A DNA stretch of 64,000 nt from a virus. The stretch's first letter is position 1; each line of letters starts with the position of its first letter. This document shows, one piece after another, positions 10,759 through 25,822 of this stretch. Location of the stretch: positions 17,327 through 81,326 of the IMG/VR virus record IMGVR_UViG_3300029374_000315; one strand, 5' to 3'. The notes below the pieces were generated by a model. The model was given only the letters and a program-made list of their open reading frames with translations. It did not search any database and was not told the DNA's origin. Made by a program: the position numbers and the translations under genes.

Positions 10759-10983
10759 ATGATGAAATATGGAAATATAACATGCAAACGATGTGGTGTC
10801 ACGTGGTATGGGCCAAAGTGTGGAAAGCTTTATTGCGATAATTGCAGAAAGATTGTGGATAGAGAAAAGGATATTAGATGTAAAAATAAAAAGAAACATA
10901 AGCCGACATTTATTGAAATTGCAAAAATGGCAGATGCAGAAGGACTGTCCTATGGAAAGTATTGTTTAAAATATGGAATCTAA
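10759..10983 (+). CDS. zinc-ribbon protein
   Basis: CKRCG...CDNC motif; ATG after GAGGTA. Confidence 0.45.
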   Translation: MMKYGNITCKRCGVTWYGPKCGKLYCDNCRKIVDREKDIRCKNKKKHKPTFIEIAKMADAEGLSYGKYCLKYGI

Positions 10984-10996
10984 AGGAGACGCAAAT

Positions 10997-11842
10997 ATGA
11001 ACGCAGTACCTGAAAAGAACGAAAATAACGCAGTTGAGTTTAATCCGCCAAAGGTTGATCCTGCTCCCAAAGTGAAACATAACCAGGCGAAGAACTATAA
11101 TATCAAACGCAAGGAAGCTTGTAATGGAACGGTGCAGCCTATTAAAGATGTAGAGGATATTAAACGAATTTCGGAATATTTTTGGAATCGTGGGATGTAC
11201 CGTGATTGGTGTTTGTTTAATGTTGGTGTATGTACTGGTTTTCGTGCAAGCGATTTGCTTCGTTTTAAGGTTTCAGATGTTACAACGCAGAGGGTAAATG
11301 GAAAGTTGCAAGTAAATGCAAATGCAAAAATACGAATGAAGGAAAAAAAGACTGGAAAATACCGTATTGTTTTTCTTCCAGAATCTGCTTTGGAAGTGAT
11401 TTCTACTTATATCAATAAAGTTAAGCTCCATTATGACGATTGGCTTTTCCCGTCATGTAAAGGCAGCTCTCGCAATTCACTGAGGAGCACAGGTGGGACA
11501 TCAATTAGTAAAAAGACTGGAATTATGTATACACACGAGGCAAATCCAAAGGTAGCCGGGGAGCCGCTTGATGTGGATAGTTTTGGACGAATTATGAAAA
11601 AGGTTCAAAAGGATATGGCTCTTCCATATAATCTTGGAACACATAGTTGCCGTAAGACATTCGGCTATCAGTTTATGGTACAGCACCGTGATGATGTTAT
11701 GGCTCTGGCCTGGCTTCAGCACGCTTTGAATCATAGTAGTCAGGCAATCACTCTTCATTATATTGGTCTTGATTCAGAAGTGGATGAGAGATATTACTCT
11801 GGAATCAATTATGGTGTGAATACTCATAGTGAGAATTCTTGA
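10997..11842 (+). CDS. tyrosine site-specific recombinase (phage integrase/Xer family, minimal, no arm-binding domain)
   Basis: Catalytic residues in order: R in TGFRASDLL, K-hairpin, HSCRKTF (HxxR), ...LHYIG tyrosine. Confidence 0.8.
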   Translation: MNAVPEKNENNAVEFNPPKVDPAPKVKHNQAKNYNIKRKEACNGTVQPIKDVEDIKRISEYFWNRGMYRDWCLFNVGVCTGFRASDLLRFKVSDVTTQRVNGKLQVNANAKIRMKEKKTGKYRIVFLPESALEVISTYINKVKLHYDDWLFPSCKGSSRNSLRSTGGTSISKKTGIMYTHEANPKVAGEPLDVDSFGRIMKKVQKDMALPYNLGTHSCRKTFGYQFMVQHRDDVMALAWLQHALNHSSQAITLHYIGLDSEVDERYYSGINYGVNTHSENS

Positions 11843-17038: not shown

Positions 17039-17374
17039 ATGATTTATACTGTAACAATGATTGACTCGTTTAAGGATGAGCAGAATGCGAAATTTAGCTC
17101 GCCGGTATCAAATACCAAAGGTATCTATTGGATGCCAGATGATAGTTGGATTGCTGGGTACTTCACGGATTTGAAAGAAGCTATCCAGTCTGTGATTGAT
17201 AATGTGGCTGATGTCTTTGAACACTGCTACAACTATGCAGTTATTGAAGGGTACGAAGAAGGATTCTATCCTGTGGCCGAGCTGACGAAGTGGTTTAAGT
17301 ATGATGCCAAGAGCGACAAGGCATTTGAGATTGAACCGCCGTTGCATAATAATGTGCGTGGATATGCGTTTTAA
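17039..17374 (+). CDS. hypothetical protein
   Basis: Internal ATG of ORF 16913, right after upstream stop. Confidence 0.45.
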   Translation: MIYTVTMIDSFKDEQNAKFSSPVSNTKGIYWMPDDSWIAGYFTDLKEAIQSVIDNVADVFEHCYNYAVIEGYEEGFYPVAELTKWFKYDAKSDKAFEIEPPLHNNVRGYAF

Positions 17375-19407: not shown

Positions 19408-20334
19408 ATGCTTACTGAAGAAAAAATCAAAGCTTTTGCCGAAAAGTATTCTGATAGAAGCGGTGAGTTTGTTATATCGACACTGCGTCACGTTATGGAC
19501 TATGAGGCTGAACATGGGTATGAGTTGTTTGACTTTACAAAAGATGATTTTGTAAAGATGTTTGCTAAATACAATTGGGTGAACTCAAGTCGGTCGTTCA
19601 GAAATGTAAAGTCGATAATTACAGGGTACATCAAAAGTGAGGATCGAGCGAGCATGTATGACTTAGCTGAATTCTCGGAAAGCGATGTGAGTTCAGACAA
19701 TATGTACGAGGACAAGTATTTTGCGTCAGTTGATGAGTTTGTTGATTTCTTGGATAAGTATGAAGAACCATATCAGATTCGTATGAATGTGATTGCTGCG
19801 CTGTACTGGATTGGCCTTACTTCTGAAGAAGTTTCTAATCTGACGATTAACGATGTTGACTTTGAATCACGTACTGTTTTGAATAAGACCGGTGTTGACG
19901 CGAGATTGATGAATATCATCAAGCAGTGTTATGAAATGAAACAATACGATGCTCCAAATATGGGTGGATACAGAACGTTTTATGTCATAAATGGTGATTA
20001 CATCCTTCGCAAAACAGAGGATAGAACTGGTGCAGACAGTGATTCAAGAATGTCTACAAACACAATTCATAGTTATTTCACGCGCTTGAATGATATTCTC
20101 GAAAGAAGATATCATTCAAAGGCTTTAGATCGAAGACATCTGACCAGAAACGGCGAGTATGTCAAGGTTTATAACTACTGTAAAACTCATCCAGAATTTA
20201 ATCTTGCAGAACTTAGTTTCGGAAATGGTAAAGATCCTCTTGCGGACATTATCGGAAGAAAGTGCAGCAAGGTTGCCTACATTAGTTTCCGGCAAGGATA
20301 CAAGGGCTGGATCGAATACTTCCACAAAAATTAA
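19408..20334 (+). CDS. hypothetical protein, possibly a divergent/inactive tyrosine-recombinase-like fold
   Basis: LTINDVDFESRTVLNKTGVDARLMNII resembles the start of integrase catalytic domains; RHRY tetrad not recoverable. Confidence 0.3.
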   Translation: MLTEEKIKAFAEKYSDRSGEFVISTLRHVMDYEAEHGYELFDFTKDDFVKMFAKYNWVNSSRSFRNVKSIITGYIKSEDRASMYDLAEFSESDVSSDNMYEDKYFASVDEFVDFLDKYEEPYQIRMNVIAALYWIGLTSEEVSNLTINDVDFESRTVLNKTGVDARLMNIIKQCYEMKQYDAPNMGGYRTFYVINGDYILRKTEDRTGADSDSRMSTNTIHSYFTRLNDILERRYHSKALDRRHLTRNGEYVKVYNYCKTHPEFNLAELSFGNGKDPLADIIGRKCSKVAYISFRQGYKGWIEYFHKN

Positions 20335-22890: not shown

Positions 22891-23000
22891 AATAGACATT
22901 TTATCGTGATTTTCGTTAGAATAATTAACGAAGTATCGTGATGTTTCTTCCTCCAAAAATGCTCTGCGCAGGGCTGACAGCCGGGAAAGACCGGCAATAT

Positions 23001-23085
23001 GGGGATATGGTGAAATTGGCAGCCACGCTTGATTCAAACTCAAGTGTCGAAAGACGTATCGGTTCAAATCCGATTATCCCTACCA
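23001..23085 (+). tRNA. tRNA-Leu (anticodon CAA)
   Basis: Cloverleaf drawn by hand: acceptor GGGGATA/TATCCCT, anticodon stem CTTGA/TCAAG with loop TTCAAAC, long variable arm, T-loop TTCAAAT, CCA encoded. Confidence 0.8.
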
Positions 23086-23282
23086 TGAAGATCAGTTGTT
23101 CTAGCTAGATCGGGGATTGGCCGTTCATTGGCAAACGACAAGCATCACACCGGTAAATGATGCCGAGCCCAATAGGAAGGGGAATAAGGTGCAAGCCGAG
23201 TAGCTGTCGGACGAATACCCTTCAGGTAGCCAGTAAACCGGAATGTAAAACAAATGTTGGCTGTTTCTGATCTTCTATATAA

Positions 23283-23365
23283 GCTACCGTGGTGGAATGG
23301 CAGACACCGGAGACTTAAAATCTCCTGTCGGAAACGACGTGCCCGTTCAAGTCGGGTCGGTAGCA
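23283..23365 (+). tRNA. tRNA-Leu (anticodon TAA)
   Basis: Acceptor GCTACCG/CGGTAGC, anticodon stem GGAGA/TCTCC with loop CTTAAAA, long variable arm, T-loop TTCAAGT. Confidence 0.8.
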
Positions 23366-23372
23366 TTGATAT

Positions 23373-23448
23373 CCGGGTGTAGCTCAGTTGGAAGAGCGCG
23401 TGCTTTGGGAGCATGAGGCCGCAGGATCGTGACCTGTCACTCGGACCA
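23373..23448 (+). tRNA. tRNA-Pro (anticodon TGG), atypical T-loop
   Basis: Acceptor CCGGGTG/CACTCGG, D-arm GCTCAGTTGGAAGAGC, anticodon loop TTTGGGA, CCA encoded; T-loop reads ATCGTGA (non-canonical). Confidence 0.55.
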
Positions 23449-23536
23449 GCCCGAAAGGGCATGTAGAATTTTTCATTCACATTATTCCCAGCTCTCTGGA
23501 AACGGAGCAGTGTGACGTAGTAAGCTGGGTATATGA

Positions 23537-23607
23537 TGCGCCATCGCCAAGCGGTAAGGCAGAGGACTTTGACTCCTCCATCACAGGTTCAACCCCTGTT
23601 GGCGCAA
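23537..23607 (+). tRNA. tRNA-Gln (anticodon TTG)
   Basis: Acceptor TGCGCCA/TGGCGCA (U1:A72, as in bacterial tRNA-Gln), anticodon loop CTTTGAC, T-arm ACAGG-TTCAACC-CCTGT. Confidence 0.75.
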
Positions 23608-23612
23608 TTTAT

Positions 23613-23694
23613 GCGGATATGGTGGAATGGCAGACACGCCAGACTTAGGATCTGGTGCTTCGGCGTGTGGGTTCGATGCCCACTATCCGCACCA
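23613..23694 (+). tRNA. tRNA-Leu (anticodon TAG)
   Basis: Acceptor GCGGATA/TATCCGC, anticodon stem CCAGA/TCTGG with loop CTTAGGA, long variable arm, T-loop TTCGATG, CCA encoded. Confidence 0.8.
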
Positions 23695-23801
23695 CGATCA
23701 TAGAATGGTTGCGTACCGTTTTGTTGATCTCCTTTGACTGCCACTATTATTCCCAGCTCGCCAGTGATGGTGCAGTAGTGCTTTGTAAGCTGGGTGATTA
23801 T

Positions 23802-23876
23802 GCAGCGGTCGTACAATGGTTAGTATATCAGCCTTCCAAGCTGAGGATGAGGTTTCGACTACCTTTCGCTGCTCCA
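23802..23876 (+). tRNA. tRNA-Gly (anticodon TCC)
   Basis: Acceptor GCAGCGG/TCGCTGC, anticodon stem TCAGC/GCTGA with loop CTTCCAA, T-arm GAGGT-TTCGACT-ACCTT, CCA encoded. Confidence 0.7.
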
Positions 23877-24063
23877 ATCTCGTATGGGTAGGATTTTTAG
23901 CGGTCAAATCCGGCTGCGCCTGTGCGAGATACCACCCCGAAAGGGGCGAGATATAGGAAATGTGCATCACTGTTATTCCTTCCTCGTCTATATGATATAG
24001 ATGCAATAGTGTTTATAAGGAAGGTTCCCAGTTGAATAGTTGCAGCTGTTTGACTGGTAATAT

Positions 24064-24140
24064 GGGATAGTAGCTCAGTTGGTCAGAGCTGGCGGCTCAT
24101 AACCGCTTGGTCGCGAGTTCAAATCTTGCCTGTCCCACCA
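24064..24140 (+). tRNA. tRNA-Met/Ile2 (anticodon CAT), elongator-type
   Basis: Acceptor GGGATAG/CTGTCCC, D-arm GCTCAGTTGGTCAGAGC, anticodon loop CTCATAA, T-loop TTCAAAT, CCA encoded. Confidence 0.8.
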
Positions 24141-24282
24141 GCCCAATAGGGTATACATAAAATCTGCTAGAATTTTTGTTTTATAAGCGATGAAATAATA
24201 TGACGTTGATACGTCTATTATTTTTTTGCTCATTTTCGGAGATTTAGCTATGTAACACAGGATACTAAAAGGAGGTGGTTTG

Positions 24283-25822
24283 GTGAAACATTATGGAAGT
24301 ATTTGCGAGATTGATGGTTCTAAGATTGAGCCTGTCTCGTGTATCACTGGTGGTTCACCTTGTTAGCCAAGACCTTTCTATTGCCGGTAAGCGGGCAGGT
24401 TTGGCTGGAGAACGGTCTGGTCTATTTATGGAAATGATTCGTGTGATAAAGGAAATGAGGGATGCCACCAATGGAGAATGTCCAAAATTTGCAATCTGGG
24501 AAAATGTTAGAGGAGCACTTTCCTCAAACAACGGAGAAGACTTCCGATGCGTCTTGGAAGAATTTGCACACATCGTCGAAGCAGACGCTACAATTCCTAA
24601 ACCTTCGGGAAAAGGCGGAAAATGGTCTAAATCCGGCGCAATTTCCGGTAATGGATGGTCTTTGGCATGGAGACTCTTCGATGCTCAATATTGGGGAGTG
24701 CCCCAACGTCGTCAAAGAATCGCGCTTGTCATGGATTTTAGAGGACAACGTGCCGCAGAAATACTATTTGAGCGCACGGGCGTGCAATGGAATCCTGACG
24801 AGAGCATCCCGACGTGGCAAAGCTTTGCCAGAATTACTGAAGAATGCACTGCTAAAGATGATCGAGTGGTGGGAGAAAAAAGCTTTTGTATTGTCGGAAA
24901 CATGATTGACAGAGAAACCAACATGAACGGGACTGGTGTAAAAGAAGATACTGCTTTTACTATAAACACTATTGACCGTAATGCTGTTGCCTACACTTTA
25001 AAGATTCGTTCAGGATGCGAAGGTGGTGGCAAAGGCGCACTGGTACAGACCGAGAAGAGTGCAACGCTTTCTACATTGCAAGATCAAACGCTAATCTGCT
25101 TGGCAGACAACACCTCTTTACATAATTTAAAACAAAAGATTTGTGTCTTGAATGATCAGGGCGGTAGTGTAATGAATGTTTCTTACGATATTGTAGGAAC
25201 AATAAGAGCACAAGAGCATGGTCATCAACCAATTGTATTTGAGAGCCATAGTCAAGATGCTCGATACACCCAGCAAGGTAATACAAGTCCGGCTTGTACG
25301 GCTCAATGGGGAACTGGTGGCAATAATATGCCGCTTGTTGCCGAAAAGAAAGCCTTTGCAATGCAACGCATTGGTGAATACAAGGAAAGTGAACAAGCTA
25401 GTACGATGAAATCTCGTGACTACAAGGATGCTACTGACTTGATTGCAGAGAAGGAAACGAAGAATCTGCAATGGATTGTTCGTCGCCTGACTCCTGTTGA
25501 GTGTGAACGGTTACAGGGTTTTCCTGATGGATGGACCGATATTGGCGAGTGGTTTGATGAGAATGGTAAAAAGCACAAACCTGCCGATTCTCCTCGTTAC
25601 AAAGCACTCGGTAATTCAATCGCTTTGCCTCAGTGGTATTGGATTTTCCAGAAAATGAAACCGTATATCGGTGAAAATCCTACGCTTGGCAGTCTTTTCG
25701 ATGGAATTGGTGGCTTTCCGCTTGTCTTTGAAAGTATGTATGGTGATGGTACTGCTATCTGGGGATCAGAGATTGAACCGTTCTGCGTTGCAGTAACGAA
25801 GAAGCATTTCCCAGAAGACTAA
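24283..25822 (+). CDS. DNA (cytosine-5)-methyltransferase, circularly permuted; N-terminal catalytic segment in a different frame (frameshift/pseudogene or recoding)
   Basis: Frame A (GTG 24283) encodes ...EIDGSKIEPVSCITGGSPC then TAG at 24364. Frame B (24293..25822) continues QDLSIAGKRAG (motif IV), ENV (VI), QRRQR (VIII), RLTPVECERLQGFPDGW (IX), KALGNSIA (X), and at the C-terminus LFDGIGG (I) and SEIEPF...HFPED (II/III). Confidence 0.8.

Follow-up and report, generated by a model that had tools for sequence, protein, structure and literature searches.

The window analysed here is a stretch of 64,000 nucleotides (nt) from the viral record IMGVR_UViG_3300029374_000315 of IMG/VR (positions 17,327 to 81,326 of that record), and it carries an island of seven transfer RNA (tRNA) genes at positions 23001–24140. 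Arrays of tRNA genes are well known in phages; what is new here is that the spacers of the island hold three RNA motifs, designated X, b and Y, which are backed by covariation and lie outside the 4227 families of Rfam 15. The island is a conserved module, present in >190 human-gut phage and metagenome contigs in three gene orders. We favour, with moderate confidence, the view that its spacers are punctuation for the processing of a precursor within a tRNA operon. The original prediction, made from the letters of the window, had taken the spacer hairpins for likely processing signals, which is reasonable and is now backed by their conservation, their covariation and their fixed geometry to the tRNA 5' ends. 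The genes and spacer elements are as follows (scores in bits are those of covariance models; P1 is the basal helix of motif b).

22980–22995, + strand: small hairpin GCCGG-GAAAGA-CCGGC, recognized from the sequence, 5 nt upstream of tRNA-Leu (CAA)
23001–23085, + strand: tRNA-Leu (CAA), class II, CCA encoded (ARAGORN; Rfam, 53.1 bits)
23086–23282, + strand: element Y, a multi-helix RNA of ~197 nt filling the first spacer; closing helix 23087–23095/23267–23275, then the leader UAUAUAA
23283–23365, + strand: tRNA-Leu (TAA), class II, without encoded CCA (47.7 bits); U-rich 7-nt linker to the next tRNA
23373–23448, + strand: tRNA-Pro (TGG), CCA encoded (55 bits); T-loop AUCGUGA
23449–23460, + strand: GCCC-GAAA-GGGC hairpin (GCCCGAAAGGGC), directly after the CCA of tRNA-Pro
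23473–23536, + strand: motif b, copy 1 (73.7 bits); UUAUU at 23482–23486, P1 at 23487–23493/23523–23529; modelled end at +1 of tRNA-Gln
23537–23607, + strand: tRNA-Gln (TTG), without encoded CCA (60.3 bits); U-rich 5-nt linker to the next tRNA
23613–23694, + strand: tRNA-Leu (TAG), class II, CCA encoded (57.2 bits)
23738–23801, + strand: motif b, copy 2 (68.8 bits); modelled end at +1 of tRNA-Gly
23802–23876, + strand: tRNA-Gly (TCC), CCA encoded (56.9 bits); abutted by X with zero spacer
23877–23934, + strand: element X, a 58-nt hairpin RNA (−24.7 kcal/mol, z = −4.0; 90.4 bits)
23935–23946, + strand: CCCC-GAAA-GGGG hairpin (CCCCGAAAGGGG), immediately 3' of the ACCA of X; other lineages have CCCCCCTGTGGGG in its place
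23964–24031, + strand: motif b, copy 3 (51.7 bits); P1 is CCUUCCU/AGGAAGG, a stem altered by paired changes
24028–24057, + strand: additional hairpin of 13 bp that lies between b copy 3 and the CAT tRNA (fold of 23968–24063, z = −4.1)
24064–24140, + strand: tRNA with a CAT anticodon, probably tRNA-Ile2, CCA encoded (65.7 bits)
24141–24152, + strand: GCCC-AAUA-GGGU hairpin (GCCCAATAGGGT), directly after the CCA of the last tRNA

ARAGORN, run on the whole window, finds exactly seven tRNA genes, all on the + strand, with the positions and anticodons given by the original prediction. The tRNA covariance model of Rfam (RF00005) could have rejected these cloverleaves, and it scores all seven at 47.7–65.7 bits, compared with a gathering score of 29; a whole-window Rfam run passed over tRNA-Leu (TAA) through its speed filters alone. 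The three Leu genes all have the long variable arms of class II.

A pattern taken from the supposed remnant between the Gly and CAT genes (now X) and matched against viral contigs recovered 61 contigs of 40–150 kb. A scan seeded in the long first spacer (Y) found 76 viral contigs, 50 of them new, and a metagenome scan added 82 further contigs, nearly all of them human-gut assemblies. The repeated hairpin (b) and X recur in >100 independent contigs with compensatory substitutions, far beyond chance. The modules are arranged in three layouts.

Layout A (the window): LeuCAA-Y-LeuTAA-Pro-b-Gln-LeuTAG-b-Gly-X-b-Ile2
Layout B: LeuCAA-LeuTAG-X-...-Gly-...-Y-LeuTAA
Layout C: LeuCAA-LeuTAA-X-...-Gly-...-LeuTAG

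Between layouts, tRNAs with the same anticodon are only 61–85% identical, and thus the lineages are not trivially young.

The string GCGGTCAAATCCGGCTGC, which the original prediction had read as a T-arm-like remnant between the Gly and CAT genes, is present there (23900–23917), but it is not debris: it forms the centre of X, a conserved hairpin ending in ACCA whose helices have been kept by compensatory changes. X has a basal stem of 13 bp (eight Watson-Crick and five G.U-rich pairs), together with an inner helix of 6 bp and a loop of 9 nt (UUAGCGGUC). Its 6-nt bulge (GGCUGC) might base-pair with this loop, and its 3' ACCA is single-stranded. In every case X starts 0–1 nt past the CCA of a tRNA, namely Gly-TCC, Leu-TAG, Leu-TAA or, once, Leu-CAG; its 3' end is ACCA save in a few variants (single copies with ACTA or AACCA), and a 4-bp G/C hairpin comes next. 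Covariance searching finds one copy per locus and none in the islands that lack X by sequence.

Paired substitutions are found in both helices of X. The basal stem ATCTCG/CGAGAT is replaced by ATCTTG/CAAGAT or ATTTCG/CGAAAT, and the inner helix GGAUUU/AAAUCC by GGAUCU/AGAUCC and GGGAUU/AGUCCC. In an alignment of 24 distinct sequences from 80 loci, realigned with the covariance model, 98.6% of the pair cells are paired, compared with 28–53% when the partners are slid, five pairs have changed on both sides, and the covariation score is reached by none of 500 shuffles; the basal stem by itself is 98% paired. The inner helix is missed by the energy model, and the minimum-energy inner hairpin given by RNAfold is rejected because the natural variants favour the GGAUYU/ARAUCC helix instead; the two could coexist only as a sterically tight pseudoknot. 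The pairing of loop and bulge (GCGG with CYGC) is 100% compatible with the alignment, but its changes are from G.U to G-C only, and it too would be sterically tight.

X folds as one hairpin, without a detectable cloverleaf. It gives no match to RF00005 at E values of up to 10 with relaxed filters and no ARAGORN call, and it does not match the mascRNA-like family RF01684, whose weak hits in sister loci overlie true tRNAs. Nor does its GCGGTCAAATCC fit the GGTTCRANYCC motif of plant t-elements; covariation backs the GGAUYU/ARAUCC pairing here. By contrast, with 13 bp and ACCA, X has the features of a hairpin-type substrate of ribonuclease (RNase) P, namely a basal helix of ~12 bp and a single-stranded 3' RCCA. 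A 15-base X pattern run on genomes matched at least 120 loci; the 120 listed are all chance matches, and the scan is uninformative on X in bacterial genomes.

These data bear on whether the spacer elements might be non-functional leftovers, X being a decayed tRNA gene and b the duplication debris of hairpin-plus-tRNA units, which look conserved merely through kinship. The acceptor-like stem of X does resemble that of a Leu-CAA variant in sister islands (GTCTCGG...CCGAGATACCA), X contains a T-arm-like string, degenerate tRNA-like genes do occur in sister islands, and many of the loci are near-identical, so that relatedness inflates the counts. However, five pairs of X have changed on both sides, and X keeps its ACCA and its zero-spacer junction behind four different tRNAs. 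The stems of b covary as well (see below), its UUAUU is kept in 72–73 of 73 copies and its distance to +1 of the tRNA is fixed before at least four tRNA species; the divergence of the tRNAs between layouts points the same way. We therefore consider this explanation very improbable.

The repeated hairpin ATTATTCCCAGCTC...GTAAGCTGGGT that had been predicted is found at 23481–23530 and 23746–23795, and a third copy (23964–24031) has a stem that differs yet stays complementary. Alignment of 12 diverse copies shows the architecture of motif b: a 5' single strand, a 7-bp P1, a 4-bp P2 that is stacked on the 5' strand of P1 and often has a GNRA-like cap, and a 3' internal loop of 15–21 nt. In this set 98.5% of the cells are paired, compared with at most 47% when slid, and seven of the 11 pairs have changed on both sides. 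Searching 584 kb with the resulting covariance model yields 152 copies; the window has exactly three, all of them inside the island and on the tRNA strand. Among 73 distinct copies, 99.6% of the pair cells form pairs (24–52% with slid partners). The stems drift, while certain unpaired bases are nearly invariant: the UUAUU that abuts P1, a C-A after P2 and an A before the 3' strand of P1.

The position of b is as regular as its fold. The modelled stretch includes ~7 nt past P1 and ends at +1 of tRNA-Gln (28 of 28 copies), Gly-TCC (58 copies) or Gly-CCC. Another 24 copies lie far from any tRNA called by ARAGORN and are upstream of tRNA-like genes that the program skipped; in representative spacers, b abuts such a gene. 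Before Ile2 or Ile-TAT, a constant extra hairpin of 32–33 nt is interposed between b and the tRNA, and b never occurs upstream of Leu or Pro tRNAs. Searches against the 4227 Rfam 15 families gave no match to b or Y, either in the window (E values of up to 10) or in seven sister islands of other layouts (up to 0.1), where only tRNAs were found; these negatives extend to the self-cleaving ribozyme families, GOLLD and ROOL of that release.

The recurrence of b could also suggest that the hairpins act as DNA, as recombination sites or as the ends of mobile cassettes that shuffle tRNA modules and so explain the three gene orders. The layouts do have their breakpoints at module boundaries, with duplicated Gly-TCC units and a movable Y; b is a direct repeat of 50–60 nt, present two to three times per island and thus a natural substrate for homologous recombination; and the closest public relative lacks the island exactly at a gene boundary. 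The G.U pairs of b, however, are frequent and would turn into C.A mismatches if the other strand folded; the fold therefore fits an RNA of the + strand rather than a DNA cruciform. Furthermore, all copies of b are on the tRNA strand at a fixed distance from the RNase P site, no recombinase or transposase is encoded inside the island, and the stems covary, whereas recombination needs sequence identity and not pairing. A role of the hairpins as DNA is accordingly highly unlikely in our view, and recombination between b copies may be a by-product.

A side observation concerns the sequence just upstream of b copy 2. The string GUUGAUCUCCUUUGAC (23721–23740) holds CUCCUUU, which is like the anti-Shine-Dalgarno 3' end of 16S rRNA and is equally a Shine-Dalgarno sequence on the minus strand. 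In those spacer variants that were read by eye, CTCCTTT recurs at this position. One of these variants has, on the minus strand, AAAGGAG-N7-ATG and a mini open reading frame (ORF) of six codons.

Element Y, found in 76 viral contigs, is the largest of the three motifs. The consensus fold of 11 homologues (RNAalifold) is multi-branched, with 48 pairs, eight of which are kept through two-sided changes, including the closing helix (G-C to A-U) and three internal hairpins; the diversity of these homologues amounts to about three clades. Y is homologous to the sequence that precedes Leu-TAA in layout B, and elsewhere it precedes Met-CAT or Gly-TCC. It always extends from 1–4 nt past one tRNA to 0–5 nt before the next. 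The conserved GGGAAUAAGGUG of Y (23180–23191) is complementary at 11 of 12 positions to CACAUUAUUCCC (23478–23489), the conserved 5' flank of b copy 1, and in layout C both partners differ together (GGGGAAUAGGUACAUGG with CCAUGUACGUUAUUC). This complementarity may represent long-range or trans pairing, or coincidence. Long-range pairing of the b 5' flank with the Y motif GGGGAAUAAGGUG was set aside, as layout B has the flank without a matching partner, and is kept as a lead only.

The G/C tetraloop hairpins of the original prediction are all present, after tRNA-Pro, after X and after the last tRNA, and at the place of the hairpin at 22980–22995 the sister locus L002 has CTCG-GAAAGA-CGAG, a compensatory change of the stem. 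The 4-bp hairpins next to a CCA do not qualify as intrinsic terminators, for they lack an adjacent T-run; the terminator scan finds only the hairpin at 24202–24215. Two signals bracket the island.

22893–22922, + strand: sigma-70-like promoter TAGACA-18-TAGAAT, with 10 of 12 consensus matches, the sole one predicted around the island (consensus match only)
24202–24224, + strand: intrinsic-terminator-like hairpin GACGTTGATACGTC (24202–24215) followed by a T-run, from the terminator scan; the likely operon end

Because one promoter and one terminator, both consensus matches, bracket the island, we infer that 22893–24224 is a single transcription unit that would yield a precursor of ~1.3 kb.

The arrangement of genes and spacers within this putative precursor follows simple rules. 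The tRNAs without encoded CCA (Leu-TAA and Gln) are followed by a U-rich linker of 5–7 nt and then by the next tRNA, those with encoded CCA have a G/C hairpin or X immediately behind them, and upstream of every tRNA there is a stable helix and then 5–7 A/U-rich bases. A CCA-less tRNA with a U-rich linker is the RNase Z-type arrangement of Bacillus subtilis, and Leu-TAA and Gln would be matured by a Firmicute-type RNase Z together with RNase P. The A/U-rich leaders fit the contacts that the RNase P protein makes with leader positions −3 to −8 (PMC11143913). Known substrates of RNase P also include acceptor/T-stem hairpin models, pre-4.5S RNA and phage C4 RNA, and the enzyme makes use of a 3' RCCA (PMC11143913); X would be a minihelix-type substrate, cut at its 5' end. 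X abuts tRNA-Gly without a spacer, and a single cut would therefore also free the finished CCA-3' end of tRNA-Gly. In plant mitochondria, tRNA-like t-elements and acceptor-like stem-loops serve as processing signals for RNases P and Z (PMC1920247), and the one-cut logic of X and tRNA-Gly would be that of the t-elements. Motif b would be a leader hairpin, with the UUAUU just upstream of P1 as the likely entry site of an endonuclease of the RNase Y/E type. Enzymes of this type prefer A/U-rich single strands next to structure. With the b hairpin in place, the new 5' end would be protected from 5'-exonuclease until the leader is cut off by RNase P ~7 nt past P1, and Y would be a larger structured spacer in the precursor.

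Several points weigh against the processing reading. The conservation of X extends to its inner helix, loop and bulge, far more than a mere handle for RNase P should need, which hints at a further or another role. The invariant internal-loop bases of b (C-A and A) are not explained by a simple scheme of cleavage and protection, and X and b may accordingly have a trans-acting or factor-binding role. At least eight related islands carry another sequence after tRNA-Gly, so that X is not universal and is not essential for the 3' maturation of tRNA-Gly. The sequence diversity of X is modest (24 distinct sequences), and its covariation thus comes from few lineages. A tight hairpin directly after a CCA could hinder rather than help 3' trimming. 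The promoter and terminator are consensus matches, from which their function is predicted, the cleavage model and its junctions are likewise derived from sequence and fold, and the benefit of codon compensation to the phage finds no support in a crude comparison with stand-in hosts, in which only CUA is enriched (see below).

The same features of X speak for a different role, in which the tRNA precursor would release X, and possibly b or Y, as a functional RNA that acts in trans and is not mere punctuation. X could, for example, be a 'top half' tRNA mimic, acting as a decoy or sponge for host factors that work on tRNA 3' ends or acceptor stems; MenT/AbiEii-type toxin nucleotidyltransferases, acceptor-stem nucleases, the CCA-adding enzyme and RNase P could be its targets. 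Alternatively, it could have a regulatory role, as does the small C4 RNA that RNase P processes in phages P1/P7. The inner helix, 9-nt loop and 6-nt bulge are almost unchanged over three layouts and >140 contigs, and the stability of the hairpin is high. RNase P-released RNAs other than tRNAs have precedent (PMC11143913), and the large non-coding RNAs GOLLD and ROOL likewise adjoin phage tRNAs (PMC5737381). In islands sampled through Y, the identity of X to the window copy averages 0.89, on a par with the adjacent tRNAs (0.77–1.0); since this is within the tRNA range, the idea that X is the most conserved element of the island was an ascertainment artefact. On the other hand, the window shows no excess of complements to the X loop (seven found, 7.5 expected), which led us to reject X as an antisense regulator. 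Furthermore, no partner protein was identified, some otherwise similar islands lack X, and the decoy idea is drawn from general knowledge. We regard a trans-acting X as rather unlikely.

A wider proposal is that X, b and Y are not spacers at all and are selected parts of an undescribed kind of phage tRNA operon, in which X would be an RNase P-released 'top-half' tRNA mimic that does more than define a CCA end, and b and Y would be new motif classes recognized by a specific factor of the host or the phage. X could in that case be a decoy for host enzymes or defence toxins directed at the acceptor/CCA ends of tRNAs, or a tuner of the activity of RNase P or the CCA-adding enzyme during infection. 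This, too, we consider unlikely.

Phage tRNA clusters such as those of T4, T5, the mycobacteriophages and jumbo phages are likewise compact same-strand arrays with some nearly abutting pairs. The tRNA cluster of T4 also encodes species 1 and 2 (rnaC/rnaD), which are stable RNAs of ~120–140 nt with no known role, made from the same precursors and with tRNA-like 3' ends. Compared by description only, X and these species are both small non-tRNA RNAs within a phage tRNA operon, but X is a 58-nt hairpin and the T4 RNAs are larger. Like the dimeric precursors of T4, the island is probably co-transcribed and processed by host RNase P (PMC11143913). It differs from the other phage clusters in its longer spacers, which have three conserved non-tRNA motifs in >100 contigs with no equivalent in Rfam 15.

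Among known RNAs, X can be compared with the hairpin-type substrates of RNase P, namely the minihelix, pre-4.5S RNA and the C4 RNA of P1/P7, which also have a long basal helix with a single-stranded 3' RCCA (PMC11143913); in X, as in these, the cut is predicted where the helix starts on its 5' side. In contrast to these substrates, X carries an inner helix that is conserved and, instead of a T-loop, perhaps a loop-bulge pseudoknot, and it has no antisense target in the window. With the plant mitochondrial t-elements it has in common that it would be a tRNA-like cis-signal through which RNase P or Z makes the end of a neighbour (PMC1920247), but the t-elements have a recognizable cloverleaf and GGTTCRANYCC and flank organelle messenger RNAs, whereas X flanks phage tRNAs. 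GOLLD and ROOL resemble X, b and Y in being structured non-coding RNAs, with no known role, next to phage or prophage tRNAs and maybe co-transcribed with them (PMC5737381). Unlike Y (~197 nt and without an Rfam match in the window or in sister islands), they are several hundred nt long and form Rfam families.

Two of the seven tRNAs need comment. The T-loop ATCGTGA that had been predicted as non-canonical in tRNA-Pro is confirmed by the sequence and the Rfam alignment (23425–23431); it has A54/U58 instead of U54/A58, and tRNA-Pro is the only one of the seven to lack the canonical U54-A58 reverse-Hoogsteen pair. The same swap (loop AUCRU..) occurs in 21 of 186 distinct island tRNAs, of the Pro-TGG, Gly-TCC, Leu-TAG and Leu-TAA types, and no half-swapped loop (A..A or U..U) was found among the 186. 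As the swap is complete and recurrent and the model score is still 55 bits, the tRNA-Pro gene is probably functional. A tRNA with A54/U58 could carry neither m5U54 nor m1A58.

The CAT tRNA had been left as Met or Ile2, and it is Ile2 that finds support. Its best matches (81%) among 5,426 Escherichia coli genomes are prophage genes annotated by PGAP as tRNA-Ile with a CAT anticodon; it has the anticodon arm GGCGGCTCATAACCGC in common with the tRNA-Ile (CAT) genes of E. coli; and, as a suggestive sign, its slot in sister islands is taken, with unchanged spacing, by a partly homologous Ile-TAT tRNA (acceptor stem and T-arm). An initiator tRNA-fMet, which would have an unpaired 1:72 position and three consecutive G-C pairs at the foot of the anticodon stem, is ruled out because position 1 is paired with position 72 (G1 with C72); the anticodon stem is GGCGG/CCGCU. 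From these comparisons the tRNA is probably, with good confidence, tRNA-Ile2, predicted to be of the lysidine type and to read AUA, rather than Met.

Some gene calls in the sister islands look unreliable. The 'Tyr-ATA' tRNA called by ARAGORN (for example in L047, L190, L205 and L232) is a 91-nt gene only one base off the 91-nt Ile-TAT gene, which has a long insertion after the anticodon arm, and the call is probably unreliable; the 'His-ATG' calls look similarly doubtful. Conversely, tRNA-like genes that ARAGORN skipped reach 45–51 bits with the Rfam tRNA model (L005 2626–2694, L015 2140–2208, L017 725–793 and L016 1138–1206) and have abnormal anticodon arms, such as a 4-bp stem with the 8-nt loop CAAGCUAA. 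Another tRNA-like gene, in sister islands with a 227-nt spacer from Gly to Met, has a 5-nt 'anticodon' loop (CTCGG-AAACA-CCGAG). These genes may be non-decoding tRNA mimics or pseudogenes.

Together, the seven tRNAs read UUG, UUA/G, CUA/G, CCA/G, CAA/G, GGA/G and, after lysidine modification, AUA, and they would add to the supply of these decoders in the infected cell, to the presumed benefit of the phage. All of them are U34 or C34 decoders of A/G-ending codons, and their strictly cognate codons make up 6.3% of the phage codons. The original prediction had offered both compensation of the host tRNA pool and an anticodon-nuclease defence as explanations. In a comparison with stand-in hosts, CUA is consistently enriched in the phage (rank 1–4 of 61) and no other cognate codon is; the comparison is crude, as it uses fragments of gut Firmicute genomes in place of the actual host, small samples and stop-to-stop ORFs. 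Codon compensation and the evasion of tRNases may therefore each explain the tRNAs.

That the tRNAs serve mainly as substitutes for host tRNAs lost to a tRNA-cleaving defence, and less to compensate for codon usage, is a possibility that we hold tentatively. Replacement of tRNAs under nuclease defence is an established hypothesis (PMC10264068), and bacterial Schlafen and other tRNases cleave both host and phage tRNAs (PMC13056530). The codons read by the seven tRNAs are not the commonest of the phage on a strict count, CUA being the only one clearly enriched against the stand-in hosts, and the A54/U58 swap could alter recognition by host enzymes. However, no data implicate a nuclease specific for the Leu, Pro, Gln, Gly or Ile tRNAs, and U34/C34 decoders of A/G-ending codons are the classic pattern of compensation too, for a phage with a G+C content of 41%.

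The stop codons of the window were also surveyed. The 58 long ORFs of the + strand end in TAA (34) or TGA (24) and never in TAG. A reading of TAG as a sense codon is rejected, because it adds ~3% to the ORF length on the coding strand, all of it at the 5' edges of ORFs, and ARAGORN finds no suppressor tRNA with a CTA anticodon in the window. The sole noteworthy in-frame TAG is in the neighbouring dcm gene, described below.

The source of the window is a large phage of the human gut (about 75–160 kb). The window, with a G+C content of 41%, encodes a phage replication module (Pol III alpha, a RecD2-like helicase, RecJ, primase, an ATP-dependent ligase and NrdD). In public databases its nearest neighbours are phage contigs from human faeces that lack annotation, and by Pol III alpha the closest isolate is Clostridium phage Amboise (47% identity); the phage probably infects one of the gut Bacillota. 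Two recombinase genes are present (10973–11842 and 19408–20334), one of which matches the Pfam family Phage_integrase and the other, weakly, the N-terminal domain of MrpR, and given these genes the phage may be temperate. One X-bearing metagenome contig, L301 (VOFB01000498.1), is 575 kb long and could represent a prophage within a host chromosome.

The closest relative, MT835544 (locus L001), is ~90% identical to the window as far as the stop codon of the gene upstream of the island (22890). Past that codon it has different genes, and no tRNAs within the stretch examined. At the place of the island (L001, 4403–6175) there is an AAA-ATPase-like ORF followed by an ORF with a KxDG nucleotidyl-transferase motif (..EKVDGTNVRV..), which on a by-eye reading of its sequence resembles an RNA ligase, possibly one for tRNA repair.

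On the other side, 134 nt downstream of the last tRNA, begins a dcm-like gene for a C5-cytosine methyltransferase (24274–25822). Its catalytic GGSPC|QDLS (PCQ) motif is split by 4 nt, TGT-TAGC-CAA (24361–24370), and the remainder is in the +1 frame. The TAGC interruption is present in 68 viral loci, with 35 distinct nucleotide contexts and ~29 protein variants, and synonymous third-position variation occurs in both frames, on either side of an invariant TGT-TAGC-CAR. The synonymous variation in both frames points to a conserved recoding site rather than a pseudogene. Translation would either shift to the +1 frame at UGU-UAG-C (giving PC-S-Q) or restore PCQ through a 4-nt hop of tRNA-Cys. The broad surveys of frameshifting in PMC5009743 and PMC3711429 do not mention the TAGC interruption, and in the dcm homologue of Toutatis PCQ is uninterrupted.

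The interruption has no evident connection with the island. Truncation of the dcm gene by the island is rejected, for the Toutatis homologue starts at the same residue. In ~24 loci with the TAGC interruption there is no tRNA within up to 12 kb, and the interruption is therefore independent of the island. A link to the tRNA-like genes of sister islands, in which the CAAGCUAA loop contains GCUA, the complement of UAGC, is not supported, given the same tRNA-less loci and the lack of that gene in the window.

The spacers of phage tRNA arrays are usually ignored, and yet the motifs described here recur in well over 100 human-gut phage contigs. They are good markers for this group of phages and candidates for submission to Rfam. 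If X works as proposed, it would be a bacterial or phage counterpart of the organellar 't-elements', in which one RNase P cut finishes two RNAs, and it would provide a testable model of phage-engineered precursor processing in Gram-positive gut hosts. A trans-acting X, b or Y would instead add a new small RNA to those made by abundant gut phages.

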